A stretch of DNA of 64,000 nucleotides from Octopus sinensis (taxonomy: Eukaryota). Under the pieces are notes generated by a model. It was not told where the DNA came from. It did no database searches and saw nothing but the letters and a program-made list of their open reading frames with translations. Position numbers and translations under genes: made by a program. Where the stretch lies: contig NC_043013.1 of NCBI RefSeq assembly GCF_006345805.1, positions 21,948,001 through 22,012,000 on the forward strand. Reading direction: 5' to 3'. Positions 3,269 to 54,205 of the stretch are shown in pieces; position 1 is the first letter of the stretch, and each line of letters starts with the position of its first letter.

Positions 3269-3459
3269 TCAGATCAGTTTCTTTAGTAGGCACTTAGTGT
3301 TAGTATATGAAAAGGCGGTACATGTAGAAGATATCAAACATAAACGGGAACAATCCAGAACCGAGTGAGCATGCATTTGGGCCTTGGTAATAAGGTTGTG
3401 ATATGGATTTTGTTTGAAGGAAAAAGTTGAATAAGTTGTCAAATCATTATTTTCTTTTT
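3269..3459 (-). CDS. PAN/apple-domain protein, distal alternative terminal exon (5b)
   Basis: Acceptor ttttctcttgcttttttttctattgcag|AAAAAG, phase 1. Encodes KENNDL...LDCSRLCLISSTCTAFSYTNTKCLLKKLI* (C-x3-C-x5-C-x2-F-x-Y-x4-C-x-L PAN core). AATAAA at 3152-3157. Confidence 0.75.
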
Positions 3460-4034: not shown

Positions 4035-4225
4035 TCAGATCAGTTTCTTTAGTAGGCACTTAGTGTTAGTATATGAAAAGGCAGTACATGTAGAAGATAT
4101 CATACATAAACGGGAACAATCCAGAACCGAGTGAGCATCCATTTGGGCCTCGGTTATAAGGTAGAGATTTGGATTTTGTTTGAAGGAAAATGTTGAATAA
4201 GCTGTCAAATCATTAGTTTCTTTTT
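4035..4225 (-). CDS. PAN/apple-domain protein, proximal alternative terminal exon (5a)
   Basis: Acceptor ccaatttttctttctcttgcag|AAAAAG, phase 1. Same 191-nt length as 5b, 8 aa differences, Cys pattern intact. Confidence 0.75.
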
Positions 4226-5954
4226 CTGCAAGAGAAAGAAAAATTGGAAAGAGGAAACACAATAAATATAAGAGCATAAATTAAATTATTGCTCTAGTCT
4301 GACAAAGTACAAGGGAAACGAATAGATGTGGCCTATTGATTCGATAGATCGATTTTATTCATGTTCCGTTTGGACATCTTTAGGTTAGTGTGAGTAGGGA
4401 GTGAGTTCGTGAGTGTTGTATAATCTAGAAAGGAAGGACTGGGGATAATAATTGATGTGGGATCTGGCTGGTGAAATAGCATGTATGACGGGAGAATGAG
4501 AATGAGAATGTTGTTGGGTGTCTCGGAGGGAGAGTGGTTCTCGTATTACCGGCGAGATGTATTGAGGTATTTCTTTGCAGATTAGTAAGGAAGCGTGTTG
4601 AGAATTTTAATGACAACGGAGATTAATATTAATCCATTTGCCAGATTTTAAATGTATTTGTGGGTTGTTTTACAACATTCTTTTGAATGGATATTAATAA
4701 TTAATTTACTGTTAATATATTTAATTAAGAATTAAGTTTCTAAGTAGAAATACTCATGTGATGTAGAAGAAAGAGATATTTATTTATTTTTTAATTTTTT
4801 GTGGCAAGAACTAGAGATCAATGAATTAAAGATGAGAAACCAGAAACAGAAACGAAAAACACAAAAAATAAACAAAAATAGGGTCTTACTGTCAACGAAA
4901 TAATTAGAGTCGAAAAATATTATACCACATCCCACAGAGTTAATCTTGTCCAGTGTATTTGACTGTTTGAAATCGTTCCAAAGTTCTGAAATGGAATAAA
5001 AATAGTTTCTTATTCTTCTGATGGTCTTAATATCTTTCGTGGTTTCTTTAATATTAATAAAGAAATCCTAATCTCCTTAATACAATCGAGTTACCTATTT
5101 ATATATAAGATAATTTTATATAAGAAGTCATTACTTCTTTAATATATGTTGAGTTTTATTTACTATCAGTTATTTCTAGTAATAACACAAGGCCTCAGAT
5201 ATGAAGGGACATACGTTTATAAAGATCCTAGCTACGTTCGAAATGTACTTCAAACATGTCTTTATATGTATAACGGTATAATTGTAACGGGAAAAGCGTA
5301 ACAGGCACGATGTAGCAAGTTGTTTGTAACACGTAGAGATGTGACAAGTTGGCGAAAGACTGTGCAATGCGTAGATAATATTTCTGGATGCACTGCAAAG
5401 AACTGCTGAAAGGTATTTCACACTTACTGTAGATTTTACTTACGCGGTTCTGCAAGTGCGACGAATGGGAAGTAAACACAAAATTTAGTTAGTTTTTATG
5501 GATAATCTATTACCATGGCAGTTGTTAATAGTGAACCCTAACTTGAGGTGGGTAAATGGGGCAAAGCTCGCGAGAAGGTGCCATAGTTAACTGTTTGGAA
5601 GTTGCAAAGGAAAGAGAACATTTTTCTCTTGGTATCTCGAATTTATTGCAGTGCTAAAGTCAAGTCAGACCATTGACAATAGATCGGAATGGATTAACAA
5701 GATTACACTCTGTCTCATCTAAAATGGTGGCGAATTAAATAGGTAAAACGAATGGATTCTAAACACAAATGGCGAGAACAATATAAACAAGCGTGAAGAC
5801 CGAGGTTTCGATTCTTGTTAAGGAGTCCGGGGTATATGTCTTACAAATATAATTAGTCCGCATTGGAGTTGGAAAAAATGATTTTTTCTGGAACAGTTCA
5901 GGGAAGCGTGTAGAATAGATCGGAATTAATTTTAATATGTTGTCTGCAATGCTA

Positions 5955-8559: not shown

Positions 8560-9180
8560 AAACCTTCACTGTGCCACTAAAACATTGGATTTGGATAATC
8601 CGCGTCAGTTTTTCTTTTGCTCTTTCTCTGTGAAACCGAGTATTTATAGGTTTTTCTGCAAATGTACAAAATTGTTGCTACATAATCTAATGCACTTCTG
8701 ATGAAAGGTGCAAACGAGACTTTATGGTCAGGGTACAAGGACTGTAAGTTTGCCATAAATGTTCTATTTTCCTAAGACTTTTGATTGTACATTCACATCC
8801 TCTGGGCAGCTGACCCCTACAACAATGCATGACATTTTTCCCCTGTAACACAGAACAATATCAGGTCTGCTATATTTGTACCGAATTGACGTTCGTTTTT
8901 GCGGGGAGTTCCAACAGTATTCCTTGCTTTCAAAATGTCTGATTACTTGCTGGTTCTAACATGGCTTCGATGTATACGTCCGAGCAGTCCTTCCTATGGG
9001 TAGCATCGTAAATAGTCTTTGCAACTATATCATGCCTCAGGGGCAGGTAGAATCTCGTAGGCATTTTGTCACAACTACTGATGATGTGGGTGACATCTTC
9101 CACACTGGTATAGCTGAGCCAACATTTTCCATCACAGCATGGAGGTTTGATGCTATCTTTGTCCCTTTTGTTCATCGATT
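8560..9180 (-). mobile_element. RLE-type (R4/NeSL-like) LINE 3' fragment
   Basis: ORF 8930..9175 [21 protein letters not shown]...[10 protein letters not shown] is a CCHC knuckle plus RHD motif. Inverted paralog at 63655-64000. Confidence 0.7.
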
Positions 9181-9326
9181 ATTTAGTAGTTATCTTGACG
9201 TATGAGTGTGTGCGTGCATGTAAGTATGCATGTATGCGTGCATCTATATATGTATGCGAGTATGTATGTATGTATGAATGTATGTATGTATGTATGTATG
9301 TATGTATGTATGTATGTATGTATCTG

Positions 9327-9358
<32 letters not shown>

Positions 9359-9367
9359 ATCGATCTG

Positions 9368-9399
<32 letters not shown>

Positions 9400-9588
9400 A
9401 TTTGGTATTGAGTCCGTACCTTTATATGACATTGGACTTAGCCAATCGATAGAGCCAAGTAAATCAAAGACCCAACCTCAATATAACAGACTAACACATT
9501 TTTGAAGGTGGTGCCTTAGTCTTGTCCAACTGACTGTGTATAATTCCAACAAAATAAATAAATAAAAACAAGAAAATGACGCCCTTAC

Positions 9589-9819
9589 CTCTGTTTATTT
9601 CGGTGTAAATGTAATTTTTGTAAAAATACAATTCAACAGTTCTATGATCTTTAGATGACAAGTGGCATTTTTTGTCATTATAGTGATAGTCAAACGATTG
9701 GCATTTTGCTTTTGCTTCGCAATGAAGCAGACATTGCGTGTAACTGAAGTCTTTAAAGTCACCCAAATCATTGTGAGAAGGTATAGCAGCTTTTTCAATA
9801 AAATCTAAAGGACATCTTC
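9589..9819 (-). CDS. PAN/apple-domain protein exon 4 (second PAN domain), left copy
   Basis: ttttcttcttcttacag|GAAGATGT ... AACAGAG|gtaagg; 231 nt, phase 1-1. GRCPLDFIEKAAIPSHNDLGDFKDFSYTQCLLHCEAKAKCQSFDYHYNDKKCHLSSKD...YTEINR. Confidence 0.85.
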
Positions 9820-10001
9820 CTGTAAGAAGAAGAAAATAAATAAATCACTGTTGTCTTTTGTTGTTTTTCGTAATGGTGGTGGAACTGTTTCACGTTGTAT
9901 AGTGTTATTATTTTTGAATAATGAGAAATAATTAATAGATATATTTTCTACTCTTTAATAAATATCAATATTGTGATAATATTGTGATGATAAAAGTGAG
10001 G

Positions 10002-10073
<72 letters not shown>

Positions 10074-10109
10074 GCAATAACAATAATAATAATGATAATA
10101 ATAATAGTA

Positions 10110-13100
10110 ATAAATTATTTTATTAGCCATGATCACTCACATAAAATAACATTGAATGACATGCAACAACATAACAGACAAAAACGGGAAGATACAATGG
10201 GTTTTACGGCGTGTAAACAATATATATAGCAAGTAAATCAAACAAATAAAAAAACACCTAATAGGGGAGGCGCTTTAAGATCCTCGTGGAAAACCCCACA
10301 AAGGCCACGGGTGCCTGATCAACAGAGCAAGAGGCCTTCTTTAAATCCCTTTTATTGTTTACAGGTGCGCGCAAAGAATTGGTCTTTTTGCACTGGACAT
10401 TCTTCCAACATTCACCCTCCTTTCAACACAATTACTACAAGGCAACACTTCCCTCTCCACCCCCAAATTCCATTTCAAATGAAACTTGAAAAAGTTGGTA
10501 AGGGCTTGGCCAAAGAGGAAGGTCTCTGACTTTAGCCCTTTCAGACGAGTCCACCATACTACCGATTTCGCTACAGCCACTAAACAAATAAAAATTGCCT
10601 GCTCCTCCCAGCCAAAGGAGGACGGTAGGGTAATCCTCACTATGGATTCAGCTGATAGCGGATCCGTCCAACACGTGACAGCAGGTGTTCGACATAAACC
10701 CACAGAGGTCAGCAATATTCGGTCACTGAACAAGGGCGTGTAGAACGGTTTCCTCATTCTGGGCACACCTCGAGCAGGCCTGGCTGACGGCACTTCCGTA
10801 CCTGTAAAGTTTATCTCAAACAGTCAGCGCCCCTCGGTGGCACTGTCAGGCAAGGGACTTCTCGAACTTATTCATAGGCCTAGGCCAGAAAGTTCTCCGA
10901 AACAGACCATTTCGTTGATCTTCATCGATGCCTAGAGTTTCCTTGAGAACGTCGTCGCGATATCCTTCCACTAGCCCTCTATAGAACGCTAGAGTGAAAC
11001 TACACCGACTTCATTGTTCGCCTGGCGGAGGGCTGTGACAAGCACTCCCTCTTCGGTCTACGCTTAATCCAGGTTTGCAGCTCAGTCAAAGGGACGGTCT
11101 GTGGAAAAATGTATCTGACAAACAGTGACCACACCTGCTCACCGCCAAGGAAACGCTAGAGATGCCGCAAACTTAATGAATGTCTGCGAATTAGTAACCA
11201 CGGCATGCCCAGCCCTTCATTCAGCGACTGTTGACAGTTGATGGAGCGCCTGACCAGTGGAACGCGCCCCTTCCACAGAAAAGGGAAGAGTAAACGCACC
11301 AGGTTGGTCAACCAGCAAACGGGGCAAGGGACGACGGTCAAGTGGTAATCGATGACAGATGCGATGTACACATTCGCCTCCTCGCCTCGACCGCTCTGAA
11401 GCAGCTCCCTATAGGCCCATGTCTGTGTAAGGCTGGCTACCTTCCTCGTCACCTCGTCCCAGTTTTTCTGCGCCTGAAGGTCTGGACCAAACTAGATTCC
11501 GAGCAATGCAATTTAATGGGCCCGTCTCTTTCGGTTCGAACACCATGTGTCCTTCCTGGTCCACCAAAGACCGAATGGTGCCTTTATTGTCACTTTTCAC
11601 CTCCGTCACGCGGGCCTATCATTACGCTATCATTCCCTCTCCGCGGCTTTCGTGTTTGGTGTCGAAATATTGGTCATGGGTCAACCTCACCGCCAACACG
11701 TCAGTTCCGATGCATCTCCCTCTATTCTATTTCGTCCTATCGTCAACGCCTTGCTAAACCTAATTAATTCTTCTTCTCTAATTTGCTCTTTTAAAAGCAA
11801 ACCAACAGTTGTTGACGATTGCCCCCGACAACGTCCGCTTAACTAATTCGCTAATCCGGTCACTGTAAGCTTGACACGTCACCTTCGGCTTCCAGTAACC
11901 GGGACCATGTCTATGAAGCCTATCCAAGTCGACTGTACAGATCACAAATTTGTGGTCTGTGTAGTTGACCATGTGAAATTATGAACACCCGATGATATCC
12001 CTGTCCGCTGGCTTACACAATACTCTATCTAGATACGATCTAGATAACCAGATGCGGTTTGTTCAAGTCCACATTGGGACATTCGGATAATCTAGTCGGT
12101 ACCCGGCAGACAATGGAAAACGTCTGAGTAGATTTTTGAGGTTTTTGCACCCCACATCTCTTATAAGAAACTCCCACGCAATCGAAACATCCATCTAAGA
12201 CAGCGTTCTAATCCCCTACTAGTACGAATGTTCGAGACGTACTCCAGACGCTTGAAGTAATCAGACCACCCTGCCCCTGTCAGCCACCAGTTTGAAAGCC
12301 CAGCCGTCACTGCTGTTGACATCTAGGACCACCAACTTACCTTCTGAATCCAGGAAGACTGCCCTTATATTCAAATCCGGACCCTTCCAGAAAAGCACCA
12401 CAGTTTTACTATTACACCACCCAGGCCGACACGGAGAAAGAAAAATCTCCGTGGGTCGGATATCTGGATTCACTAATGACTGCAACATTTACAGTAAGTG
12501 ACCTCAGGTCATTTAAAAGCTGACGTTGTTTCCAAGGTGACCCGAGGCCCCTGGCCTCTATAAAACTATTCTTAGCATCACCAAGTTAAAATAACTATAG
12601 AATGGAGAAGAGCACCTCTTACCACTGTCCTCTGGTATGATGGTACACTTCATGTGGATGTTTCCCTAGGTTTTTATATATTCTTTTTGTAAAAGTCTTT
12701 TGGAGCCACCCCACAGCATCTGGAAATGTTGCTTTTATGGTGTTGTAAATTTGTTGTGTGGTTTTTAATATTTGTATGCGTGGTGGTGGTGGTGGTGGTG
12801 GTGGTGAGTTCTGTCATGGTGGTGTTTGTATTGTCTCTTGAGTATGTAATTAAATCTATTATTGCCTGTATCAATAGCTGTGAAGTTTGTGGTGCTAGTA
12901 GAATCTGTGGTGGAGTTTGTGTTTGAGGTGATAGTGCTGGTGGAGGTGGTGTTGTTGTTATCGGCTGTTGAGTGTGGTGTTGCCGCTGTTGGGACGTTCA
13001 GTGTCCTAGCGCCTCCCCACTTTTTCTTCTACTGTCTCAGTAGATTTTTCTTTTTTTCTTTGGTGGGGGTGGGGAAACTGTTTGCCACTCCCCCCCCTCT

Positions 13101-13284
13101 CGACTTCGTTACTCGAACAGTCCGAGTTGTTTTGGTCGGGAAGGAGGATTGACTCCGACTTTTGGTTTTGTTGGTGTTCATTTGTTACTGCTGCTACTGC
13201 TACAGTAGTTGTTGGTGGTGGTGTTACTGCGACTGGGGGTAGTGGTACCCCGGCCGGTGGCGGGGGTGGGGGGGGGGTACTCCG

Positions 13285-13315
<31 letters not shown>

Positions 13316-14224
13316 TTAGGAGATGTCCCTTTTTCTGGTGTCGGTTGTAGCGTTCGACGCATCTCCTTGTATTTTGGCAGTCGATGTTAAGGTGCTGATT
13401 GTTTCCACAAAAGTAGCACCTCGGCCTCCTGCCCTCCACAGCTACGCGTAGTCTCGTGCTCTTCGGTGAGTTTAAGGAGTCAGGGATAGACTTGAGGTCC
13501 TCTTGTTCCATTTGGACAAAGCGTTCCAACTCCTGACCCGTCCAATTTTGTCGGTGCAACTTATACACCTCCAGGATCGCGGCCGTATCCTCTATATCAT
13601 AGAAGACAGCGGCCATCAGCCAACATATGTTTAATTCAGGGGTACTCCCCCCCCCCGGCCGATATTAATTTTGTTAACATGCCGACCAAGACATGTCGGC
13701 ACGACGATAAGGTCTTCTGAAAATAGTGGCACTGTGGAATGTTTTCTTGCTTCTTCCTTTGCGTAGCGCACTTCCACAGTACCGAACCATTTTCCACGTG
13801 TCACTTATGTTTTCTTCTTCCAAATTGGTTTCAGAATTAGTTCCAGTTATTCTTGTGTTGCTCGTTCCAATGACTTTTTTTGTTTGTTTATACATTTGTA
13901 CGTAATGCTTCTTCTGTTTGTGTCCAGAACAATTTCTTTCGGGGTATTTAGAGAGACATTATTACCTTGTCTCACTAAGAGCCCCTTGAAATTTTTTAAA
14001 TCCTCTAATGTGACGTTTATCGTTTCTCTTGTTTGTTTCGCTGCAGAAGCGAAACCGTGTCTATTGGATCTGTCATTTGCGTTTGTGTTTGTATTTTCTT
14101 CGTTGTTTTTCTTGTTCACAGCGGTGTTTTCTTGACTTTTTTCTTTTTCAGTGTTAATGGTGGTGCCGGTGCAGTTAGTGGTGTTGGTACTGTTCTTTGT
14201 GCTGTTCAGAAGATAAATCGTTGA
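10110..14224 (-). mobile_element. Old Tx1/L1-clade LINE with RT core deleted (probable 5' UTR displaced to ~20370-20520 by nested SINE/LINE)
   Basis: ORF1 zinc knuckle RCYFCGNNQHLNIDC (13224..13616). APE remnants DSEGKLVVLDV and YTDHKFVIC...GPGYWK. C-terminal homology to the other Tx1 copies; 3' end gctaataaaataa abuts (TTA)n. Confidence 0.8.
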
Positions 14225-14467
14225 GGTACTGGGCGTCAGAATGGCAGCGAGCTGGCAGAAACGTTAGCACGCCGGGCGAAATGCGTAGCCGTATTTAGTC
14301 TGTCACACATGTGTTCGTGGTAAAAGTTGCTGTTTCTTGGTGTTAATATTGTTAATAACTGTTGTTTCTTGTTAAACTGTTGAATAACTTAACTGTTGGA
14401 GTTTTTATTTGAAAACACTTAGTGCTTGTAGTAGCACGCGTTGTTCATTCCCCCTTTAGGGGGAAGA

Positions 14468-15993
14468 ATGTCGTCTAGCATAGAGCCTGCCGTTGGAGCA
14501 GAAATACTTGTTTCTCCTGTTGAGAGGAGGAAATACATGTCCGGCGAGGAGCCAACTACAGACAGGGAAATAAGGGTTTCCCTCGCTACAAGAAAGAATA
14601 GCAGAATAGATAATATATTTGATTTTTTTGGAGATGTGTCTGAAAGCTCGTCAGAACTATCACCAGAAGAGTTTCCGACTTTGCCAGAGAACAAAGGCAC
14701 TGTGTCGAAAAGAGTAATTGATGTGCCTAGCATCCAGACAGAACCAAAAAATGGGAAAAAATGTTTTGCGTTGGCAGCTGGGAGTGGAATCTGGCTGCTG
14801 TCGACGAATAAGAGCGACTTTATGAAATATAGCCAAATGATGAAAATAACTGACAACGTTGTGAAAATTGAACCTCCGGAAAAGTTATTACAAGAAAAAA
14901 ACCAAAAAACTTTAATTTTCAAAACATATTGTCTACAAAAAAGAAAAAAATGAAAGAATGTCAGAAGAGAAAATAGAAAAGTGCTTAAAGCCAATATGGG
15001 ACGACATAGTTTATCTGAGAAGAGGCAAGAAATTCGGAACGGTGGAAGTAAGGTTCACCAATAAAGAAATAGCACAAAAGAACTCAGTAGAAACGCTGAA
15101 AACCAACGACGTGGAGCTTATCTCCTATATATGGGGATGAGAACGTCCAGAATAAAAATTACAATGGTCCCACCGGAAGTGGACCCTATGTGGTTGTTGG
15201 CGGCAGTCCTGATCAAAGAGGAAGAAAAAATTACTCTCCTCCAGGCTACCGCTACCGAAAACACACACTGGGATGGTCAAACAATTAATCTCCTTATTCA
15301 AGCGGACCCTAAAATAATTCAAGCAATTCCCGAGACAATTGAGGTAGGGGAGGAGAACCTCGTGGTGTTTGTTGAGAGCCGAAAATCTCGATGTTTTTTA
15401 TGTAGTCAATTAGGCCACATTCGAAGGAACTGCAAGGAAAATGAGGAAGAGGAGGAAGGAGAGAAAAAAGACAAAGAGGAAGATGAAAAAGAAGAAACAG
15501 ATGAGAAAAAACAACAAACAAAAGGAAACTACCAGCAACTCAACTGAGAGCGGCGACTACTACAGAACAACGACCAAAAAAGACTGCCAGAAGAGAAAAA
15601 GAAGAAAAAGGCATAATAGCCGTATACACTAAAGATACTGAGCTCATGAGAGACATTCAACTCATAAAGACTGTAAAAAAAATTGATAACCTTTCAGAGG
15701 AATTTATCAATTACGACATATATGAAGTCTCAAATAAGACTTATAGAATTCTACAAAATAAGTACAGAAAGACTGTATCTTCATTGAGATTAGATTTTAA
15801 CAAGTCGATATTTCAGGGATTACCAGCTCCGATCCCGCGAGAAAAGGAAAAGGTGGAGATTCCCCCTCCACCTGATAATTCTGTGTCGGTGGTGAGACGG
15901 GATTTTGACAAATCTATTTCCCAAGACCGTCCACCTCCGACCCTGGATCAAAAAAAGGTGGAGGGTCCCCCTCCACCCGACAATCCTAATTAA
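14468..15993 (+). pseudogene. Tx1 ORF1 (gag-like, CCHC zinc knuckle), frameshifted
   Basis: Consecutive ORF pieces 14441..14953, 14958..15140, 15131..15547 (SRCFLCSQLGHIRRNC) and 15646..15993. Confidence 0.8.
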
Positions 15994-16004
15994 ACAGGTA
16001 AGTG

Positions 16005-19000
16005 ATGGCTATTCACATTGGTTGTTTAAATGTTCATGGCCTGTTGTCAAGCTGGAAGCAAGGACGCTTTCTGAATGACATCAGGTGGAGAAATTTGGAT
16101 GTAATTGTTGCAACGGAAACCCGGGTGAAGGGGCCAAGAGATCTGCTCCCCCTCCTGAACGGCTACGAGAAATACGTTTCTCCGAGTCGGGCGGGAGGTG
16201 GGGGTGGGGTGTTGGTCCTACTAAAAAGAAACCGGGTAGCCGAGAAAAAGTTGTTTTTTTTCTGACCCAGAAGGCAGGCTGGTCGTTCTCGACTTGACAT
16301 TCAGTTGTGGCAAGACAATCAGGCTGGTCGCTATTTACGCACCAAACATTATTGGCCCGCAAACTGAATATTTTCGTGGCCTAGGAAAGTTCCTAGCCAC
16401 GTCGCATTCACTAGTAGTGTTAGGAGACTCTAATACAATATGTGCAGCACACACAGATTGTGTTGGCTCAAACTCGAACATGAACAGAAAATGTAACCCA
16501 GGCTTTCGGGATCTGCTAAGTCAATTTCAGCTAGCAGATCCATATAGGTTGGAGCACTCGAACACTCCACAGTGGACGTGGTCAAATAGTGACGGGTCTA
16601 CCAGAACATATCTAGATAGGATTTTAATTAGAGAAAAAGATAAGTCCATAGTTGAGTGTCCACAGTTTTTTCTAGTCAGCTACAGTGACCACAAGATGGT
16701 TACCTGTAAACTGACGGTAGATAAGTTGCATAGACAGGGATCTGGCTACTGGAAACTCAATACGTCCCTTTTGGCGATTGAGGAGTACAGAAAGCGGATC
16801 AAGATGTTAATACAGAGGGCATTAACAGGTACCATCATTAATAACAAATGGTGGCACGCCCTAAAAAGAGCCATCAAATATGAGTCTATTAGGTTTAGCA
16901 TAAGTTTAGCTAAGAAGGGACGTAAAATAGGAGATGGTCTAGTTAAGGAACTAGAAGAAGCCTGGAGGACTGGTAATACAGACCAAGCGAGGGTGAAAAG
17001 ACTGGAGTTAAACCAGCATCTTGAAGCCCACCACATGGGAAGTATTACCAGAGCTAAGTTACGTGCAATGGGAAGTGAAGGAATCAAAGCCGCTGGATGG
17101 GCCCGAGTGGTGGAAGCTCGGCAAGGAAATAGTTCCTCTATTCGGTCTTTGACGAATCAAAATGGTGTCTTGATAAACGAACCCGAGAAAATGTGTGAGG
17201 TCTTTCGGGAGTACTTCGCCCAGCTGTTCGGGGGTGACGGCGGTCCTGGTAGTGGGAGAGCCCTCGAGGACTTTCTTACAGGGCTGCCGTGCCTCTCGGG
17301 GTCGGATGCGGAGTCTTGCGAAGGGCCAATCACACCTGAGGAGGTGATGGAGGCTTTGGCCGATTGTAAAGCGGGTAAGTCACCGGGACTTGATGGTCTT
17401 CCGTACGAGCTGTATAAATGTATGCCAGACTTGTTCGGGCAACTACTGACTGACGTGTACGCGAACTGGAAACAGAATGGGTTTATCCCCAGATCTGTGC
17501 GCCGGGGAGTAGTGACGTTGGTCAGAAAGGACCCGGACAAGGGGGACGTTCTAGAGAATTTCAGGCCCATCACTCTGTTAAACGCAGAAGTGAAGATTTT
17601 GGTCAAGGTTCTAGCAAAAAGGTTGGCGCGTGTCGCGAATGGTATAGTCGGGGAGGCACAGACATGTGCCATCCCAGGCAGAACCATTCAGGATACCCTC
17701 CATCTTATTCGCTATACCATAGAGAGGTTTGGTAATAAATCTGGCAAAGGTGGGGCATTGGTGCATTTGGACCAGTCTAAAGCTTTTGATAGGGTTGACC
17801 ATCGATACCTAGCGACTGTAATTGCGCGGTTTGGCCTGGGCCTTGGCTTCCTCAGGTGGTTTATCGCTTTGTACCACAACATTGACTCGATAGTTCGGGT
17901 GAACGGTTTCCTTTCGAAGCCGTTCTGCATCAGACGCTCGGTTCGTCAAGGATGTCCGCTTTCACCACTTTTGTATGTGATGGCTCTCGAGCCATTACTG
18001 CAAAGGTTGAGTGGCATCCCGAGAGAACCAGGACTAGAGGAGTTTTTTACGGCTTTCGCGGATGATATCACTATCAGTGTAACCACAGTGGCACGCCTAC
18101 GTGAAGTAGGTAAGACTATTGAGGCTTACGAGGAGGTAGCAGGAGCAAAGATTAACCAGGAAAAGTCGGTCGGCTTGCAGCTCGGCACCTGGGTTGGCAA
18201 GTCGATGCCTTCAGACAGTGTTGTTGGTTGGAGAGACAGCTCTTTCGCTTTTTGTGGAAGGGCAGGTCTCCACTTGTGAAACGCTCTGTCTGCTGTCAAA
18301 AGCCTTTAAATGGAGGTTTAGGGATGCCTTGGTTAATGATGCGCAGACATGCGTTGAGGTTGAGGCACCTCTGGATTCTCCTGGATAGTGAACGGGTGTG
18401 GTCTCCGCTGGCCAGACAAATGTTCCCTGAGTTCAAGAGTTTTTGCGAACAGGAAGCCTGGTGTTCTCGTAGACCGAGGTCGAGTGAGTGGCATAAAGAG
18501 TGCCGTAAGGCCCTCTTGCTGTTCCGGCGCTCGGGCAACGCCAGCGGTGAGGGTTCCACACGGATTTTATATAGTGGGTTGGTAGAGTCTGAATGCGACG
18601 ATGGCCTGGGGTCGACTCTAGGTCTCGGATTTATTCAACTGGACAGCTTGTTTCATCGTACATTCGGGTTGAGAACGTTGGACAACTTCCAAAAGTCCTT
18701 AACCTGGCAATGCTACAGAGGTGCCTTGCCCGTTTGGGATAAGCTCGCAAGACATGGTAAACGTCAGTCGCCGACCTGTCCAAGATGCGGGGGGGGACAG
18801 GGAAACCGTCCCTCACGCTATTGTTCAGTGTCCGGAGATAACTGAAATGTGGGCTTATGCTGAACATCTGTTGTCCGGCGAAGGAAGAGTACGGCTGTCG
18901 ACTGAGTCAATTATAAAAATTGACCCACCGGGAGTTCTAACGAACGAAGGTAAGAATTGTTTTCTCACGGTTGTAGCAATAGCAAAAGAGGCTGTATGGA

Positions 19001-19179
19001 AGACTAGGATTAAAGGAATTAAGACAGGCAACTTTATCTCTGGTGACAATTTACGATCCTTTTTTTCTTTTCATTTGAAAAGGAAACTGTGGCTGGAGAA
19101 GAGGTGTCTGTCAGAGTGTACGTTCCAAAAGAGATGGAAGTATGTTGCACGAGTGTTGTGCATGCAAGGAACCGTGTGA
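16005..19179 (+). pseudogene. Tx1 ORF2 (APE endonuclease, reverse transcriptase, C-terminal Cys motif), frameshifted
   Basis: MAIHIGCLNVHGL, YLDRIL, SDHK, GYWKLN, PGLDGLP, FRPITLLN, LDQSKAFDRVDH, RQGCPLSP, FADD, CPRC. Frameshift at the poly-T near 16255 and a ~70-codon deletion near 18230 relative to the 28040..30205 copy. Confidence 0.9.
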
Positions 19180-20562
19180 ATAGACGAGGAAAAAAAAAAA
19201 AAAAAAGGAAAAATAAAAAGGTATCAGCGGTAGATCGGGGCTTGTGCGATCGGAGCGTAACTTGATCATCGCTTCATTTGTATTGTTTTTGTACTGTGTA
19301 TTCCATTCGATTTTTATGTATTGTATTTTATTTTTAATGTCACATTTATGTAAAATCATATCGATTCCCTGATCCCATCAGTTGTACTGTCCATATCTAT
19401 GTTTGGCCCCCGGTGGGCAATAAAGAAATTCGTATTTCGTCTGCCGTATTTCGTTCTGAGTTCAAATCCCGCCGAGGTCGACTTTGCCTTTCATCCTTTC
19501 GGGGTCGATAAATTGAGTACCAGTTACGCGCTGAGGTCGATGTAATCGACTTAATACCTATGTCTGTCCTTGTTTGTCCCCTCTATGTTTAGCCCCTTGC
19601 GGGTAATAAAAAAATAGGTATTTCGTCCGCCGTTACGTTGTGGGTTCAAATTCCGCCGAGGTAAACTTTGCCTTTCATCCTTTCGGGGTCGATAAATTAA
19701 GTACCAGTTACGCACTGAGGTCGATGTAATCGACTTGATACTTATGTCTGTCCTTGTTTGTCCCACCTATGTTTAGCCCCTTGTGGGTAGTAAAGAAATA
19801 GGTATTTCTTCTGCGGTTACGTTCTGAGTTCAAATCCCGCCGAGGTCGACTTTGCCTTTCATCCTTTCGGGGTCGATAAATTGAGTACCAGTTACGCACT
19901 GAGGTCGATGTAATCGATTTAATACCTATGTCTGTCCTTATTTGTCCCCTCTATGTTTAGCCCCTTGTGGGTAATAAAGAAATAGGTATTTCGTCCGCCG
20001 TTACGTTGTGGGTTCAAATTCCGCCGAGGTAAACTTTGCCTTTCATCCTTTCGGGGTCGATAAATTAAGTACCAGTTACGCACTGAGGTCGATGTAATCG
20101 ACTTAATACCTATGTCTGTCCTTGTTTGTCTCCTCTATGTTTAGCCCCTTGTGGGTAGTAAAGAAATAAGTATTTCTTCTGCGGTTACGTTCTGAGTTCA
20201 AATTCTGCCGAGGTCGACTTTGCCTTTCATCCTTTCGGGGTCGATAAATTGAGTGCCAGTTACGCACTGGGGTTGATATGATCGACTGAATCTGTTTGTC
20301 TGTCCTTGTTTCTCCTCTCTGTGTTTAGCCCCTTGTGGGTAGTAAAGAAATAGGTACTGACCGTCAGAACTCTTAGTGGAAAAGAATCCCTTCTATACAC
20401 CAATAGGGGTTTAGAAAACAAAAACACTTACATAACAGTCAACAACCTTCAAAAATACACAAGAAAAATTCAAACTGACGGAGCGTTCAAAACAGGTCTT
20501 ACCTCGTCGTCAACGACAACAACAACGACAATAACAATAGCAATAAGAATGATAAGGATAAA

Positions 20563-20611
<49 letters not shown>

Positions 20612-20625
20612 GTTATTATTATTAT

Positions 20626-20680
<55 letters not shown>

Positions 20681-20699
20681 GCAACAATAATAATAATGA

Positions 20700-20969
20700 T
20701 AATAATGTTGTGGTTAATGAGGAGGGTAGACGTGATACCCAGGGTAATTGATGCAGTTCGAAGTATCAGTACTCAACTACCAACATGGCTGAAAAAGATC
20801 GGTGCAAGTGTGAAGGTAGAACGCCTACAAATATCACCATTGCTTGGAACTACAAGAATTTTTCGCAGGGTTCGTGAAGCATGACCAGTAAATATGTGTC
20901 ACCTTAGTCCGCTGCTTGTGGACAGCTGACACTTTCCATCATACCCAGCAAAATAAGTTGTGAGTTTTC

Positions 20970-20971
<2 letters not shown>
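20700..20971 (+). mobile_element. R4/Dong-clade LINE 3' end embedded in (TAA)n
   Basis: LWLMRRVDVIPRVIDAVRSI...ERLQISPLLGTTRIFRRVREA*, with (TAA)n on both sides. Paralog at ~57930-58195. Confidence 0.7.
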
Positions 20972-21023
<52 letters not shown>

Positions 21024-21094
21024 TAATAATAATAATAATAATAATAGTAATAATAATAATAATAGTAATAATAATAATAGTAATAATAGTAATA

Positions 21095-22530
21095 CTTTTT
21101 TATATCGGACCTTTCTTATAAAAATAGGGACAATACAACACAAATGGACAAGTGGGGTGTTGAACAATGCCGTGTATGCAATAAGTAACAGAAAATAAAT
21201 AACAAAAAGAAATTGAACAATAAAAATTCCCCAAAAGGGGTTAGCTCCTCACAGGGACAACCGCAGACCCCCCACACTACCTGGTTATTCCGACCGCCAG
21301 TGCTACTCAGAAGGCGCCTCTCTCCTTCTCAACCCCTCCGGTTTACAAAAGAAAGTTCAGAGCAGGCCCCTTTACTCGGACCATCCTCACCACATACACC
21401 CACCTTTCATCAAATTTACTGGGGAGCAGAACTTCCCTCTCTACCCTCACTTACCTTTTTAAGTGGAACTTGAAAATGTCGATGAGGGTTTGGCCCAAGA
21501 GGAAAGCATTCGCCTTCAGTCCTCTCAGTTTCGTCCACCGCCTTCACCATAGCCACCAGACAGAGGAAAACTGTCTTTTCTTCCTGGCCAAAGGAAGGAA
21601 GGAAGGAGGGTGGCGATCTTCACGATGGACTCAGATGATAACCGGATCTGTCCTACACGCGATAACAGCCGTTTGACAAAGCTGCACTAGTCAGTAATGC
21701 TCAGACAATGAATGAGTGCGTGCAGGACGGTTTTGTCGTTCTGCGCACACCTCGAACAAACCAGACTGACAGCACTTTTGTATCTGCAGAGATCGTTTGG
21801 AGCCGGCAGAGCTCCCCGATAGCACAGGCAGGCCATAGAACTTTGGAAGTTATCCATACGATTCGGCCTGATAGTCCTCCGGAAAAGATCAGTTAGTTGA
21901 TCCCTTCCGTCGCCCAGTTTCCACAAGGACGACGTGATTCTTACCCGCTACTAATCCCCTATAGAACACCGCAGTGGAACTTCCTCTGACCGCGCTGCCC
22001 GACTGACAGGAAGCTGTGAGCGCTGCTGACACTCCACGTTCCACGCGTCCTTTCTGGGTCTACGTTTGATTGAGTACTATAACTCCGTCAATGAGATGAG
22101 CAGCAGAAAATCCTACTTGACACACGGTGACCACATCTGTTCACCGTTAAGAAAATGCTGGAGATGTTGTAGCCTCAGCGCACATCTGTGCATCATTAGC
22201 CACAGCACGCCCAGTCCTCCACTCTGTGGCTGTTGATAGCAGATGAACCGTATGACGAGGGGAAGACGTTCTTTCCACAGAAGGCGGGATATTAAGCGTT
22301 CTAGCTTGGTCAGTTTCAAAGCAGGGCAATGGACTACTGTCAGGTGATAATAGATGAGGGAAGCTATGTATGCATGCGCCACCTCCACCCAACCTTTCGG
22401 GGACAATTTCTTCTCTACCCATTTCTGGGTGAGATTGGCTATCCTGTTCGAGTGGTGGAGTCGGAGACTAGCAAAATCACGTGGGATTTCTTAATCCAAA
22501 CAGATCAAGTGCTAGAGCTAACAGACCGGA
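21095..22530 (-). mobile_element. 5'-truncated Tx1-clade LINE
   Basis: ORFs 22113..22406 (AYIASLIYYHLTVVHCP) and 21687..21926 (MDNFQSS...CYRGALP...CSRC) match the Tx1 ORF2 C-terminus. 3' end abuts (TTA)n. Confidence 0.8.
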
Positions 22531-22599
22531 CATAGTGGTGGTGGACCGCATATGCTATATCGTTGATGCTCCACATTCCTTTGACTCACGAACAGTCAT

Positions 22600-22870
22600 G
22601 TAGGAAGGCGATAAAATAAATAAATACAACCATCTTAAGTACGAAAAACCTCGGTTATGGGAAATGAAGAAGGTGAAGATAGTCCCAATTATTGCTGGAT
22701 CCTTGGGGACATTATCAGAAGGAACCATGAGAGGTATAAAAGACACCGGAAAAAGGGCACAGTAGAACTTTAACAAAAGGTTTTCCTCCTTGGCAAGGCC
22801 ATGATAATCAGGTAAATATTCAGTGATGAAGCGGAGTGGCTGAATGAAATCCAAGATGCGTTAAGAAATA
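22600..22870 (+). mobile_element. R4/Dong-clade endonuclease C-terminal fragment
   Basis: Translates RLWEMKKVKIVPIIAGSLGTLS...QKVFLLGKAMII. Paralog at ~56090-56350. Confidence 0.55.
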
Positions 22871-22929
22871 TAGAAGCCCAAGAAGACATAATGATATGTA
22901 CAGAAAGGAAAAAAAAAAAGCAATTAAGA

Positions 22930-23950
22930 AATTGACCCATAAAGACAGAAGATCTCTCTTGAGCTCTGACACATTTGAATAGGAACGTGCAGAAACACTG
23001 CTCTCTCAGATACCCCAAATTGCAAAGTCCATGGGATTGACGTCCAGACTTAGGAGAGGCCATATTTTCTTATCTCCAAAACCGTTGAAATGCTCTTTAA
23101 ACCACCTCTGTATCAAATTGGATGTGTGGGCCGGAGCCCTGTCTAGAGTGAAGGTGTAACGGTCACCAACTGTTTCTGTGATCCAGGGCAACACTATCTC
23201 ATCCAACATTTCAAAATAAACTTCACTGTTATCCTTCACGCCCAGAATCGATGAAGATCGATGGAGACTTGGACCCATCTGATGCATCTGTAACCCACAC
23301 TATGAGAGAAGCTGTCTTCTGATGGCGTATATGAATCCTGTTACCGTCGGGCAAGTCCCCTGCATTATATGCATAAAGCCTGTCATTCTATTGGAAACTG
23401 CCTCCGCGATGAATAGTTTCTCATCAGACCATATCAACACTTTGTTAGTGGCACGCTTCTTCTCAGCTAACATAGTTTTACCCCTGTCGAGCCGTTTCTT
23501 CTTGGATGTTGCTGAAATTGACCGCTTGGATTGTTTCTTTTTTGCAGCAAGTTTTAAATCCACTTTAAAAATCCTGTTCATTGACGATTTTGAAATATTA
23601 AGAGAGCTTTTGCAGCTTTTCTTGCATCCTGCGGGGATTTCCGTTCATTCGTTTCTTCACAGCTTCAACATTTCAATTGCTCGGTTCCTACCAGGAATTG
23701 GCTTGCTAGAAGTTGTAGTGGACTCCATATATTGTTTCCAGGTATTGAACACTGTTTACGACGCACATTCAACCGTTTTGTTATGTCATCGTTGCTCACT
23801 CTAGCTGCTCTCAAAGCGACAATCTGGTCATGTTTTTACTTTCGACGCCATGTTTGTTTGCAAACCAGTTTTAGACGAACGAAACAATAGAAACATGAAC
23901 AAAAGACATAAGCAAATCTTTACGTTAAATGTAGATATTACCTGAACCGA
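22930..23950 (-). mobile_element. Tc1/mariner-superfamily maT (DD37D) transposase relic
   Basis: LIWSDEKLF, and D-RAPAHT...WPLLSLDVNPM-D with 37 residues between the last two Asp. Frameshifted. Confidence 0.8.
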
Positions 23951-24760
23951 TATTCTTTAGGAAGAGGTTTACACATGGGTAAATCTTTCTGGGGCACTCT
24001 GGACATGAATGACAGATACTGAAAAGAAAGAGAGGGGAGGGGGAGAGAGAATGAATGAGTGAGAGAGAAAGAGAAAGAAAGAGAGAGAGAGAGAAAGAGA
24101 AAGAGAAGAAGAGATATAGAAAAAGGGAGAGAGAGAGAGAGAGAAATATAGAGTGTTACTCAGGATTGTGGGCAATTCTGATTTGATCCAGTTTGAGGGT
24201 TTTCATTCATTTGTGAGTAAGTTACCCTACTTTTTTCCCATTTTCTTTGATTTATATTTTAAAAAACAAAATATGTTTTACACATTCAGTTAAGCATCTT
24301 GTGTAATTATTGTGCGTAATTTTAAAAACTCTTATCATATTCTGTTTTCTTATAAGATCCCTTTTCGTCTCCCTCACAAACTGATGTCATCCATACACAA
24401 ATATTACACACCAGACATGCATTATTTTCATCATCAAATATATTGAGAATATTCTCTGAGAGTCACATGACAAAACGGTCTTATAAAACTTTACATTTTC
24501 TCTTCCCTCCTCGGTAATCTTGTGTCTCAATCCGTTTCTAAATTTTCTGCTAAACATATCACTAAAAACTTTATTAGAACTTTAACTCTCCGGAATGAAA
24601 ACTCTACAAACAATTATTTTTCAACTCACTCTTATCTACATCGACCAGAGAAATCGCAGTCAATTTTTAAATGCTAACCGTATTGTTTCTCATTGGACTA
24701 AAACATAGAATACAAGTGTCAAGGAATGAAATAAACACAGAAAGATTCAAATTTGTTTAC

Positions 24761-25018
24761 CGTCTCTATACTTGGTCGGCACAGATCTTCTCAACTGATA
24801 AAAATGGGTATTAGTTATTTTTATTAGCATCCTCTCTGTTGAGTCTTCTTCGTATAAAATACAGCTTGGACTTATCGTTCTGCTCACGAAGGATTTACAT
24901 GCAGAAGTTTCAAAACAACTCTTCGAACAGTTGAAGGCATCCACGTCAAATGTCATCAATGTTTTGGCATCTTTCAGAGCACAGTTTGGTACTTTCATAA
25001 AATACTTCAGATATTCAA
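24761..25018 (-). CDS. PAN/apple-domain protein exon 3 (first PAN domain), left copy
   Basis: ggctttgttacag|TTGAATAT ... AGAGACG|gtaaac; 258 nt, phase 1-1. EYLKYFMKVPNCALKD...FNCSKSCFETSACKSFVSRTISPSCILYEED. Confidence 0.8.
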
Positions 25019-25578
25019 CTGTAACAAAGCCAGGCAAATTAAACAACCAAAATACGAAGACGAAAATAAAACATTGTGAAAATAGATAATAATAAAGATA
25101 GAGAATATTAAATGTTTGAGGATCAGCATTGATATTTTTACCAGGAAGAAGTGAATAAAGTTGTTACTACCATATTGTAGGTACAAAGCATCTTGGGATA
25201 TATAATCTGTTTAATGAAAATGACTGCGAATGAGTCTTAAATGTTGTTTAATTAATTCTATTATTTAAATGATTCACATATTATATATTATAATGTTTAA
25301 CGGTTGTCTGTTGTAAAGAATGTCCCCTAATACCAGCACTTTTTGTTTTATTTAACAAAATGCTTACAAGCTGACGGAAAACTGAATTATCACCAATGGA
25401 AATTATGTTAAGAATTGAATTCGTCATAATACGAGATTTATCTTGAGTTTTCTTTTCATCAAATTTACTTAGAAAAGGAAAATATTTTCTTCCACTGAAC
25501 TTATAAATTAAAGTTTTGAGTAGTGATTTTCATAATTTTCATAGATATAGGTCTATATATTGATATAAATTTACTTAC

Positions 25579-25614
25579 GTCCATTTCCAAATGTCAGTGA
25601 GATGTAGAAGAGAA
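25579..25614 (-). CDS. PAN/apple-domain protein exon 2 (36 nt, second half of signal peptide), left copy
   Basis: aaattttcgttgcag|TTCTC...AATGGAC|gtaagt; phase 1-1; (V)LFYISLTFGNG. Identical in the right copy. Confidence 0.75.
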
Positions 25615-27133
25615 CTGCAACGAAAATTTTGTAAAAAATTTCCTATTTCATATTATTTTGTAAAAAAATTTCATATTTCATATTCGCGTTTAACATTAAT
25701 TTACAAACAATAAAGATGAAAGGAATAAGAAAGAAAAGTGCTACAAGCATAATTCAGTAACAAATACGGCGATGACCACCACTACATCACCATAAAATTA
25801 TCCATTGAAATAATGAAGGAATGCGATAAATTGGAGAGGGATAGAAAGAGAGGGAACAGAAGAGAGAGGGATAGGAGGAGTGAGGGTGAGATAAAAAAAG
25901 AGAGGAGCAGAAATAGAAAAAGGGAGAGATGAAGAAATAAAAAAAAAATTCTATTAGTTTCAAACGAGATAGGAAGCCTCAGTATTTCTTGGAATAGAAC
26001 ATTCTAGACACTTCAGAGGCTTTAGTGAAAGTATTACGTATATTAAGAGCGGGATAAAGAGTGAATGTAGTGAACCAAGAAGAATATTTAATTAATTGAA
26101 ATTATGCATGTAATGAAGAGGGGGGAAATTATCTGATTAAATGATGACCGTTGTTAAGAGATGGAAGGGAGAGAAATTCTGAAATTGAAATTGATTAAAA
26201 ATAATGTAGAGGTAAGCAGTGGGGAACGAACCTAATTTTTAGTAGGTTTTGGGTTAAATCCGGACATGTTTTCGTCTTATCAGACATCCGCAGCGAAATG
26301 TAGCCTAATACGTACTTATTGGAGAACTTTTTAGGACTGACTTCTGTATGCGGAACATAGATTATACAACGAAAAACATAATGAGAGAGTTGACCACATC
26401 CTTTCCGGTGATCCGTTCCTTTGCCAAGACCAATAATGTTCCCAGACAGGAATATATGTCCATGGATCGCAATTTGAAGAAAAGAACGGATAAGAAATGA
26501 TAAAACATCAAACAGAATCCATTATAACGACCCGACCACAATTAACTGCGGAATGACAGATAAAGACATCAAGGAGAACTGTGCAAAAATAATTTGCCAA
26601 GGAATGAAACAATGATATCTGTACTCTGATTGATATTTCAATTATTTTGTTGTTGAAGCATTTCCAGTGAGAGGGGTAGAAACTGCAAATGTTCAAGTTT
26701 CATGAATTTAAAATGATCAGGAAGCATGTATGAATATGAAAACGCTATCAATAATAATTGAATCACAAGGTATGATAAAAATATGAAGAAAATCGTAAAT
26801 CCCATGTCAACGTTATTCTCCATCCAAAAGATAATCCAACTAAACTCGGCCCACATCGTACGCAAGCCACTTTCAATTTAGTCGTCCATCTCAAATTTTT
26901 CCATTCTCTGCATGCAAAACATTCCATATATAATCACTGGCCAATAAAATGTTTATATTTTACACAACACACACTGCAAACAATCACAACGAAACAATGT
27001 ATCACAACACATTCTCTAGACTTTAACTGATCCAATAAAATATACAAAATATATTCATATATTTGCAAGAAAATGAAATTTGAATTAAAACTCTCAAAGG
27101 AAATACATCCAAAGGTATATTCATTTATGCATA

Positions 27134-49958: not shown

Positions 49959-50437
49959 ATCATCTGGTGATCTTATGCCATCTCAATCGTTAAGTCAATA
50001 CTTTTTCACCCGGAGTATCTTTATAAAGTGTATTGAATAGATACAATCACTTCATTAAGAGGATAAATTCAAACAAGTAACATCTCGTTCTTGAAAGCCA
50101 TTTCTACCTAGAAAACAGACAGGATGTTAAGGAGGAATTATCTTCAAATTATTTGTATGTAAATGTTTTATTGTATAATTAATATATGCTTTTAATTTTT
50201 AAGAGTTTAGCCATCACGACTGAGACCCTACAAGAACACAATTTATATATATATGAGTTCAGTAAAAATTTAGATTCACATGAATACGGTACTTAAGTTG
50301 AGGGACCAGAATTTAGTACGGTTATTATCCATACAATTTCAAAGTAAGGTGATTAAAATCAAAATAAGCAACAAGGATAATCAAAAGTAATGCAATTTTC
50401 TTTTCCTCCCTCTATTGTGGTAAAACTTTGATATATA

Positions 50438-52173: not shown

Positions 52174-53351
52174 AAATGGGTGAATATTAACATGACCTAA
52201 ACCTTCTGAACTATGCCTATCCCTTGTCCAGTGAGATCAAAATTAATCAGGGATCGTTGGTTGTTACTAGACTCCACGACACTCACCCTCAGTGTTCGTT
52301 GGCTGTCACTCATTTCCACGACACTCCCTGTCTTGAGATATTGGCTATTTTTATGCCATCTCTATTACTTAAATCCAACAAGACTATTTTGAATCGTTGT
52401 GTAAAACTCTGCTAGTTTCGTATGGAAGAATTAGTTAATATAAAGTTTATGTCGTAACTCTCTACGACAATTTTCTTTGACTTCTAAATGTACTGTAAAT
52501 ATTAAATGTACGTAAATAAACTAATTTAGTAAATAATTACTCTTTCTTCATTTTCTTCAACCTGTTAATGAGATTTATTTCTGTATCCATGAAACTGTTA
52601 TTATAGCGGTGACCTTTCAACATGTACGTTTCAGCGTCTTCGTGTATAATTCATCACGGTGTTTACGCAGCCTGAGTTAAGATTTATGTATAGTGATAAC
52701 ACTTATAGTTAAGTTATAAGTGACCGGTTTATCACTATAGATTTCTACTCAGTAAACATCTATATTTATTATCTTTTCCAAGTCAAAAACATTCTATACC
52801 AGATTATCCAACACAACCTTATATATTGGTGACAAGCCGACGTGAACTTAGAAAAGTCTACTCAGGAGAATAATCACTCTATAAATAAGATAGAATCAAC
52901 CCGTTATAAAAGTGGTGAATCGCCTTTATAAAAAGTGGTTAATTCTACGAACAAGTTATACGTAATACTTTCACTAAAGTCTCTGAAGTGTCTAGAATGT
53001 TCTCTTCCAAGAAATACTGATGCTTCTGATCTCGTTTGAAACAAATAACATTTCTTTTTCTTTCTTCCTCTTTTTCTATTTTTGCTCCTCTCTTTTTTTA
53101 TCTCACCCTCACTCCTCCTACCCCTCTCTCTTATGTTCCCTCTCTTTCTATCCCTCTCCAATTTGTCGCTCTCCCTCATTATTTCAATGGGTAATTTTAT
53201 GGTGATGTAGTGGTGGTCATCGCCGTATTTGTTACTGAATTATGCTTGTAGCACTTTTCTTTCTTATTCCTTTCATCTTCATTCTTTGTAAATTAATGTT
53301 AAACGTGAATATGAAATATGAAATTTTTTACAAAATAAATTTTCATTGCAG

Positions 53352-53387
53352 TTCTCTTCTACATCTCACTGACATTTGGAAATGGAC
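53352..53387 (+). CDS. PAN/apple-domain paralog exon 2 (36 nt)
   Basis: aaattttcattgcag|TTCTC...AATGGAC|gtaagt, identical to 25579-25614. Confidence 0.7.
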
Positions 53388-53947
53388 GTAAGTAAATTTA
53401 TATCAATATATAGACATATATCTATGAAAATTATGGAAATCACTACTCAAAACTTTAATTTATAAGTTCAGTGGAAGAAAATATTTTCCTTTCCTAATTA
53501 AATTAGATGAAAAGAAAACTCAAGATAAATCTCGTATTATGACGAATTCGCTTCTTAACATAATTTCCATTGGTGATAATTCAGTTTTCCGTCAGCTTGT
53601 AAGCATTTTGTTAAATAAAACAAAAAGTGCTGGTATTAGGGGACATTCTTTACAACAGACAACCGTTAAACATTATAGCATATAACTTGTGAATCATTTA
53701 AATAATAGAATTAATTAAACAACATTTAAGACTCATTCGCAGTCATTTCCATTAAACAGATTATATATCCCAAGATGCTTTGTACCTCCAATATGGTAGT
53801 AACAACTCTATCACTTCTTCCTGGTAAAAAATATCAATGCTGATCCTCAAACATTTAATATTCTCTATCTTTATTATTATCTATTTTCACAATGTTTTAT
53901 TTTCGTCTTCGTATTTTGGTTGTTTAATTTGCCTGGCTTTGTTACAG

Positions 53948-54205
53948 TTGAATATCTGAAGTATTTTATGAAAGTACCAAACTGTGCTCTGAAAGACGGT
54001 AATACATTGATGACACTTGACCTGGATGCCTTTCACTGTTCGAAGAGTTGTTTTGAAACTTCTGCATGTAAATCTTTCGTGAGCAGAACGATAAGTCCAA
54101 GCTGTATTTTATACGAAGAAGACTCAACAGAGAGGATGCTAATAAAAATAACTAATACCCATTTTTATCAGTTGAGAAGATCTGTGCCGACCAAGTATAG
54201 AGACG
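53948..54205 (+). CDS. PAN/apple-domain paralog exon 3
   Basis: ttacag|TTGAAT...AGAGACG|gtaaac; 258 nt, open, 5 aa different from the left copy. Confidence 0.78.

Follow-up and report, generated by a model that had tools for sequence, protein, structure and literature searches.

The observations set out below are consistent with a proposed history in which the middle-domain exons of duplicated Octopus sinensis genes for predicted secreted three-PAN proteins were likely diversified by selection and exon exchange, altering what their products bind, a reading that we hold with somewhat better than even confidence. The window, by which we mean the whole stretch of DNA analysed (64,000 nucleotides of contig NC_043013.1, positions 21,948,001 to 22,012,000), holds two such genes, A and B, on the arms of an inverted duplication. 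Their fourth exons, which encode the second PAN domain (PAN2), differ in 39 of 231 nucleotides (9589-9819 on the minus strand versus 62867-63097 on the plus strand), and a gap-free alignment confirms the count first made by hand. In this model, positive selection would act on loop and hairpin residues of PAN2, exon 4 would be exchanged between gene copies, and the resulting changes would alter binding by the protein, with little change in the first or third domain. The product would most likely be a secreted, noncatalytic binder, variable in its middle domain and constant in the two outer ones.

Aligning the family to the window by tblastn yields six exons with 31, 36, 258, 231, 96, and 191 coding nucleotides (Table 1). 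One PAN domain is encoded by each of exons 3, 4, and 6, and every exon junction is in phase 1; exchange of the phase 1-1 exon 4 therefore keeps the reading frame. Copy B is readable for exons 1 to 4, the window ending before exons 5 and 6, and its exon 1, with a GT donor in phase 1, matches the N terminus of database proteins P0007 and P0021 at 10 of 10 amino acids. Copy A comprises exons 2 to 6, the last of them duplicated in tandem, and each of these exons has an open frame and its splice sites. Homology of A to B stops inside intron 1 at 26042, and neither blastn (word size 7) nor tblastn with family N termini found an exon 1 for A on the minus strand of the window; an ungapped scan, in which the best score was 36/71, was negative as well, as was a search of that strand for an ATG..GT pattern. 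Since no first exon for A lies within the window, A may be a truncated copy.

Table 1. Exons of gene copies A and B and arms of the inverted duplication, in window positions
Feature	Position	Strand	Remarks
Copy A exon 4, PAN2, hypervariable	9589..9819	-	PF00024 40.2 bits; AG/GT ends, 231 nt, phase 1-1
Copy B exon 4, PAN2	62867..63097	+	PF00024 32.8 bits
Exon 1 coding part, ATG and start of predicted signal peptide, oriented for copy B	50124..50154	+	
Copy B exon 2, rest of predicted signal peptide	53352..53387	+	identical to A exon 2
Copy B exon 3, PAN1	53948..54205	+	
Copy A exon 2	25579..25614	-	
Copy A exon 3, PAN1	24761..25018	-	PF00024 24.0 bits
Copy A exon 5, linker with one Cys	4890..4985	-	tblastn; AG/GT, 96 nt
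Copy A exon 6, PAN3 and stop	4035..4225	-	PF00024 24.7 bits
Exon 6 tandem duplicate, open frame	3269..3459	-	11/191 nt from first copy
Inverted duplication arm A	8841..26042	-	self-blastn
Inverted duplication arm B	52957..64000	+	self-blastn; continues beyond window end

Both exon 4 copies exceed the PF00024 gathering cutoff of 21.4 bits, as do PAN1 and PAN3. The AlphaFold2 model of the A PAN2 domain (pLDDT 91.7) has five strands and a helix at residues 26-35, with the antiparallel sheet cradling this one helix and the core cysteines at 29, 33, 39, and 51, as in the PAN fold. A model of the family protein P0002 contains three PAN folds (pLDDT 79), and the modelled domains match those of plasminogen, hepatocyte growth factor (HGF), MIC4, and SML-2. 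Matches in the ESM Atlas were to generic PAN clusters only. The N terminus is hydrophobic and modelled at low confidence; given this stretch and since no catalytic or membrane domain is seen, we predict that it is a signal peptide and that the protein is secreted. Exon 4 encodes five cysteines, versus six in a strict apple domain with its end-joining third disulfide, and the unpaired fifth may form a bond with the cysteine of exon 5. By analogy with other PAN/apple proteins, the family would have a binding function, and copies A and B may then differ in ligand specificity.

How does exon 4 differ between the two copies? Each copy is an AG..GT exon with an open frame and no indel or stop, and the five cysteines (positions 2, 29, 33, 39, and 51) are common to both. 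Of 76 complete codons, 27 carry a replacement and 3 have silent changes alone, in line with the approximately 27 of 77 and 3 of the initial annotation. Changes at codon positions 1, 2, and 3 number 13, 17, and 9, and path averaging in codons hit more than once gives 6.25 silent steps. Seven codons carry two or three changes each, and multibase mutation or microconversion in such codons can inflate omega. Relative to B, A gains four histidines and loses an N-glycosylation sequon at position 25. The neighboring PAN exon 3 differs at just 9 of 258 nucleotides. At the protein level the first domains are 94% identical and the middle domains 64% identical, so that the pair amounts to a natural experiment, with a near-constant PAN1 and a divergent PAN2.

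That exon 4 has diverged faster than the introns is borne out: 17% versus 6.7% (639 of 9,589 aligned intron columns, counted after microsatellite masking). None of 9,359 sliding intron windows of 231 columns reaches 39 differences (maximum, 35), and the excess has a P value of about 0.003 with overdispersion allowed for; against the most diverged flank alone it is marginal (Fisher P = 0.045). The flank figures first given, about 5% downstream and 11% upstream, shift somewhat under the same masking, to 5/179 (2.8%) near downstream, 13/137 (9.5%) upstream, and 43/370 (11.6%) far downstream. Being unusually alike in A and B and near identical in pieces from other sequencing runs (0 to 3 differences in several of them), the near-downstream flank is a poor neutral control. 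The tract 63078-63200, which covers the last exon 4 codons and the first 100 intron bases, is near invariant in pieces from three runs and is conserved or homogenized. Pairs of adjacent differences within exon 4, a possible sign of conversion, number 10 versus 6.4 expected (P = 0.08).

Might the two copies be an artefact of assembly, with two haplotypes or misjoined contigs set as an inverted pair? The homology does break off abruptly inside intron 1, and many O. sinensis gene models are near duplicates on small scaffolds. Against this, the arms are 6.7% apart and differ by multikilobase insertions, the window is without N, pieces resembling B occur in two other runs (11 differences in 238 and 6 in 160), and among the matches listed the A letter is found at 20 of the 29 exon differences. 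In the two runs, one of which may be the source of the window, 58 and 23 contig pieces fall on B exon 4 and its flanks, at identities from below 90% to above 99%. The B-like pieces and the many A letters fit a multicopy family and argue against an artefact, which we regard as very improbable. Of the 29 run differences listed in exon 4, 8 are silent and 21 are replacements, near the neutral ratio; this ratio reads multihit codons one base at a time and is given no weight here with regard to selection.

The initial annotation proposed diversifying selection, to be assessed by dN/dS. Selection is supported, but the whole-exon route is not significant: for A versus B, Nei-Gojobori (NG86) omega is 1.5 to 2.1 (Fisher P = 0.05 to 0.21), maximum-likelihood (ML) omega is 1.7 to 2.2 (likelihood ratio test, P = 0.12 to 0.37), and the codon bootstrap gives 0.13 (kappa 1) or 0.035 (kappa 2). 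Setting neutral time to 0.07, as in the introns, raises ML omega to 3.3 (P = 2e-8), and setting it to 0.12, near the most diverged flank, gives 1.9 (P = 0.001); these P values take no account of uneven rates within the arm. A second approach did without the introns: sites were grouped by how variable they are in 10 further paralog domains, and the clock was taken from the silent sites of the exon itself. At family-variable sites, omega is 3.4, 3.9, and 5.4 at three thresholds (P = 0.018, 0.008, and 0.0015; simulated P = 0.01 at the middle threshold, 1,000 draws). A and B differ at 20 of 40 family-variable sites versus 7 of 36 elsewhere (P = 0.008), or at 18 of 35 versus 9 of 41 if P0001 is left out. 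At family-conserved sites omega is also near 1 (0.86 to 1.17). With two sequences, few silent sites, and the seven multihit codons, these comparisons suggest moderately supported positive selection on exon 4.

Could age, and not selection, account for this divergence? Exon 4 of A or of B may have been imported from an older paralog, or its flanks and the constant exons may have been homogenized later, all under ordinary constraint. Mosaicism is indeed family-wide, the B PAN2 domain is equally near to P0001 and to A (64% each), and an A+B clade has approximately unbiased (AU) test P values of 0.39 to 0.43 in PAN2. The silent clock of exon 4 (0.10 to 0.13) lies above the intron mean of 0.07, although not significantly (P = 0.43 to 0.46), and the far flank is likewise above the arm mean, so this segment may be somewhat older than the arm as a whole. 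However, the null for the site-class test needs a neutral time of 0.28, four times the intron value, whereas the exon shows only 2 differences at 14 fourfold sites and 1 at 35 two- and threefold sites, and simulation puts this account at P = 0.01. Because omega at variable sites is high on the exon's own silent clock, age alone is rejected as an explanation, and we consider this alternative unlikely. Import of exon 4 from a third paralog had been named in advance as a finding that would undo the case for selection; such import may have occurred here and appears to be common in the family, but age alone fails to explain the A/B difference.

Another alternative is relaxed constraint: A would be a duplicate that has no promoter and drifts neutrally, and the divergence of exon 4 would lie in the upper tail of chance variation. 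A is without exon 1 in the window, and its PAN2 branch is the longer one (0.43 versus 0.16), with 11 derived residues versus 4 when P0001 is the reference; this asymmetry between A and B is not significant (11:4, P = 0.12; 12:6, P = 0.24). The omega values near 1 at conserved sites, and of 0.8 to 1.0 between the exon 6 duplicates, would also fit drift. Yet a neutrally drifting exon should diverge little more than the introns do, and 39 of 231 is above every intron window. Moreover, exon 3 shows purifying selection between A and B (omega about 0.35 to 0.37; P = 0.008 to 0.010 at a time of 0.07, at which omega is 0.37), and frame and splice sites are intact in all six A exon copies. We judge neutral drift to be a distinctly unlikely source of the divergence.

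Where do the changes fall in the protein? Variable sites, mapped on the predicted structure as the initial annotation had suggested, peak in the b3-b4 hairpin (45-50) and at 63-70, 55-62, and 19-25, with the b2 region among the peaks; b3, the helix, and the last strand (b5) are conserved. The A/B differences align with a strand-hairpin-strand stretch of Sarcocystis SML-2 that we take to be its sugar pocket. Galactose binding in SML-2 and in Toxoplasma MIC4 presumably needs a lysine three residues after the last core cysteine; in PAN2, B has Leu at this position, whereas A and each of the 10 further paralog domains have Ser, and Lys is present in PAN3 only. Because PAN2 is without this lysine and PAN3 keeps it, PAN3 may, by analogy, be a constant glycan anchor.

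These genes belong to a family of octopus proteins known in databases only through automatic annotation ("Apple domain-containing"), with a hydrophobic N-terminal stretch, three PAN domains, and 280 amino acids. Its O. sinensis loci include LOC118766701/702/704/705/713/692 and LOC118761179; other members are O. bimaculoides LOC106868906, O. vulgaris CAI9735246.1, and Argonauta GAB1605676.1. Their PAN1 exons are 66 to 92% identical to those of the window genes, but the PAN2 type of the window is at most 64% identical to that of any listed protein and sits on another backbone than those of the listed O. sinensis ones. Only one longer database relative of exon 4 was found, an O. sinensis protein of 280 amino acids, and the searches for family relatives gave 11 near-length proteins and 1 shorter one, all from Octopus. 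Cluster lookups brought 19 O. sinensis locus identifiers with 10 distinct PAN2 sequences, several of these loci probably being duplicate haplotypes; six lie on one 59-Mb sequence. Members occur in O. bimaculoides and O. vulgaris, one occurs in Argonauta (36%), and remoter three-PAN proteins are also present in Octopus. The 30 clusters examined included none from squid or cuttlefish, which is no proof of absence. The literature searched, mostly outside the subscription journals, contained no paper on this octopod three-PAN family. Long multi-PAN Octopus proteins (P0023, P0024, P0033, and P0039; 667 to 2,643 amino acids, up to 13 matched stretches) are distantly related to this family.

The variability of the middle domain extends across the family. 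Median identity is 0.44 in PAN2 versus 0.75 in PAN1 (11 genes) and 0.81 in PAN3 (8 genes). PAN2 identity does not exceed that of PAN1 in any of 55 pairs (one tie at two decimals, P0003/P0017, at 0.76 for both) and is below that of PAN3 in 28 of 28, pairs that are not independent. Among nine paralogs, at least four residues occur at 39 of 76 PAN2 sites versus 11 of 85 in PAN1. We excluded P0011, P0013, P0021, and P0030, which are without a full PAN2, and left Argonauta (the outgroup) and the near duplicates P0004 and P0006 out of the site classes; P0082, found later, is outside both the site classes and the 55 pairs. In P0007/P0082, PAN2 is not the more diverged domain (0.88 versus 0.82 for PAN1), any more than in the tied pair, and two O. 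vulgaris/O. sinensis pairs have PAN2 domains that are 99 to 100% identical. Because PAN2 is not faster in two pairs and is nearly identical in these cross-species ones, PAN2 types seem to be kept across species, with divergence that would be episodic after duplication and not a steady arms race.

Exon-level mosaicism in the family is well indicated by sequence comparison, with the reservation that public gene models in a tandem array may hold misjoined exons. PAN1 and PAN2 identities are uncorrelated across the family (rho = -0.10). Two O. bimaculoides genes pair in PAN1 (72/89; 88% identical), but their PAN2 domains are 43% identical, each grouping by type with O. sinensis genes, and an O. 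bimaculoides clade is rejected in PAN2 (AU P = 3e-6). In the window genes, exons 1, 3, and 5 and the start of exon 6 are 100, 88 to 89, 90, and 80 to 83% identical to P0082 (LOC118766701), and P0007 (LOC118766702) is similarly close where its model has these exons; exon 4 is 37 to 39% identical to both, the lowest values in its rows, and is best matched by P0001 (55 to 64%), the PAN1 of which is the most distant among full PAN1 domains. The A+B+P0001 clade seen in PAN2 has an AU P value of 0.038 in PAN1, and a clade of A, B, P0007, and P0082 is not formally rejected in PAN2 (P = 0.059); the groups tested were named partly after the identities had been seen. We infer that exon 4 was transferred, that constant exons were homogenized by conversion, or both. 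With that P value of 0.059, an extreme burst of change in the PAN2 domains of P0007 and P0082 would be an alternative to either route.

What might such proteins do? Within the reading favored here, of selection combined with exon exchange, we lean weakly toward recognition of foreign surfaces, that is, of microbe or parasite glycans or proteins; saliva or venom comes behind it as a possible role, and reproduction is a doubtful one. No RNA data set was listed for A exon 3, and two runs guessed to be RNA showed no exon cover at B exon 4, results that say nothing about expression. Numerous paralogs, of types that persist from species to species, would suit immune recognition or a venom cocktail better than single-locus gamete recognition. 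As background, cephalopods are described as having few C-type lectins in PMC10140915, and the accessible part of PMC8878817 makes no mention of PAN. A venom origin would involve the same evolutionary process, with salivary or venom proteins whose middle domain tracks prey targets; it differs in role only, its weight being the share that this role takes inside the favored reading, and we rate it as unlikely. By its size and predicted secretion, the family would be at home among the 27 salivary superfamilies without annotation (median length below 300 amino acids) described in 10.64898/2026.02.02.703354, the main text of which, as far as accessible, does not name PAN, apple, plasminogen, or lectin families, although its File S1 may list this one. 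Leeches do have salivary proteins with the PAN fold, namely LAPP (1i8n, Z 8.4) and saratin (2k13, Z 5.5); these small secreted fold matches have a single domain and 16 to 18% identity and are salivary, an origin that for the octopus proteins is only putative.

Comparison with other PAN proteins offers partial parallels. The apicomplexan apple lectins SML-2 and MIC4 are secreted, PAN-only adhesins, and SML-2 is the best PDB match in sequence (E = 2.6e-4) and a fold match (TMq 0.72 to 0.74). To our knowledge, these lectins have no hypervariable paralog repertoire. Matches to the plasminogen/HGF and factor XI/prekallikrein folds reach Z 12.6 (root mean square deviation [RMSD], 1.9; 78 aligned) and 12.0 (RMSD, 2.2; 75 aligned), and A PAN2 versus plasminogen/HGF gives Foldseek TMq values of 0.78 to 0.82. 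The N-terminal PAN domains of plasminogen and HGF and the apple domains of factor XI and prekallikrein share the fold, but the octopus family is without kringle or protease domains, at 11 to 20% identity to these proteins, whose genes are conserved and single copy. Families with a constant frame and a variable exon include MHC exon 2, plant NLR LRRs, sea urchin SpTransformer, snail FREPs, and amphioxus VCBPs. They combine selection in one binding exon with exchange between paralogs, as proposed here, but their folds are unrelated to PAN, and an immune role in octopus is putative. The pattern is familiar; the family and fold are not, in that the literature searched contains no description of this family. 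If our reading is correct, octopuses would carry a set of binding proteins in which the frame is constant and the recognition domain is variable and likely under positive selection, a candidate diversified recognition repertoire in animals reported in PMC10140915 to have few C-type lectins; if the proteins are salivary, they would be an unrecognized venom family.

A single exon 1 lies between the two inverted gene bodies (26042 / 50124-50154 / 52957), and an arm-to-arm crossover would turn the spacer around, so that exon 1 came to precede the outer exons of A. We speculate, as a long shot, that exon 4 is a specificity cassette in an immune-type repertoire, which conversion moves between gene backbones, the donors being inverted copies that have no promoter, A among them. 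A spacer flip by arm crossover would put A exon 4 under exon 1 and could then act as a specificity switch, whether germ line or somatic.

Several further observations concern the locus itself. In exon 3 (24761-24890 on the minus strand versus 54076-54205 on the plus strand), all nine differences fall within codons 16-42, and codons 43-85, together with exon 2, are identical in A and B, a possible recent conversion tract. Exon 4 is flanked in both copies by (ATT)n and (ATAG)n/(ATAC)n microsatellites (10000-10100 and 9260-9390; 62620-62730 and 63290-63600), which could seed exon exchange, yet such repeats occur everywhere in the window. The PAN3 exon (3269-3459 and 4035-4225, minus strand) is duplicated in tandem along with its upstream intron; both duplicates have good acceptors and differ by 8 replacement and 3 silent changes, and they are possible alternative last exons. 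An 83% match to the non-PAN tail of the O. sinensis model P0011 at 2223-2378 (minus strand) implies that the duplicated unit reaches past the last exon and that the P0011 model is likely misspliced. About 5.3 kb (14302-19617) is found in arm A only and contains a 679-amino-acid reverse transcriptase frame (16240-18276, plus strand; PF00078), a LINE-like insertion after the duplication. Finally, a SINE-like unit of about 184 bp forms head-to-tail arrays of four to five copies in intron 3 of both arms (19396-20356 and 58433-59200), and a third such array lies in the spacer (40246-40780).
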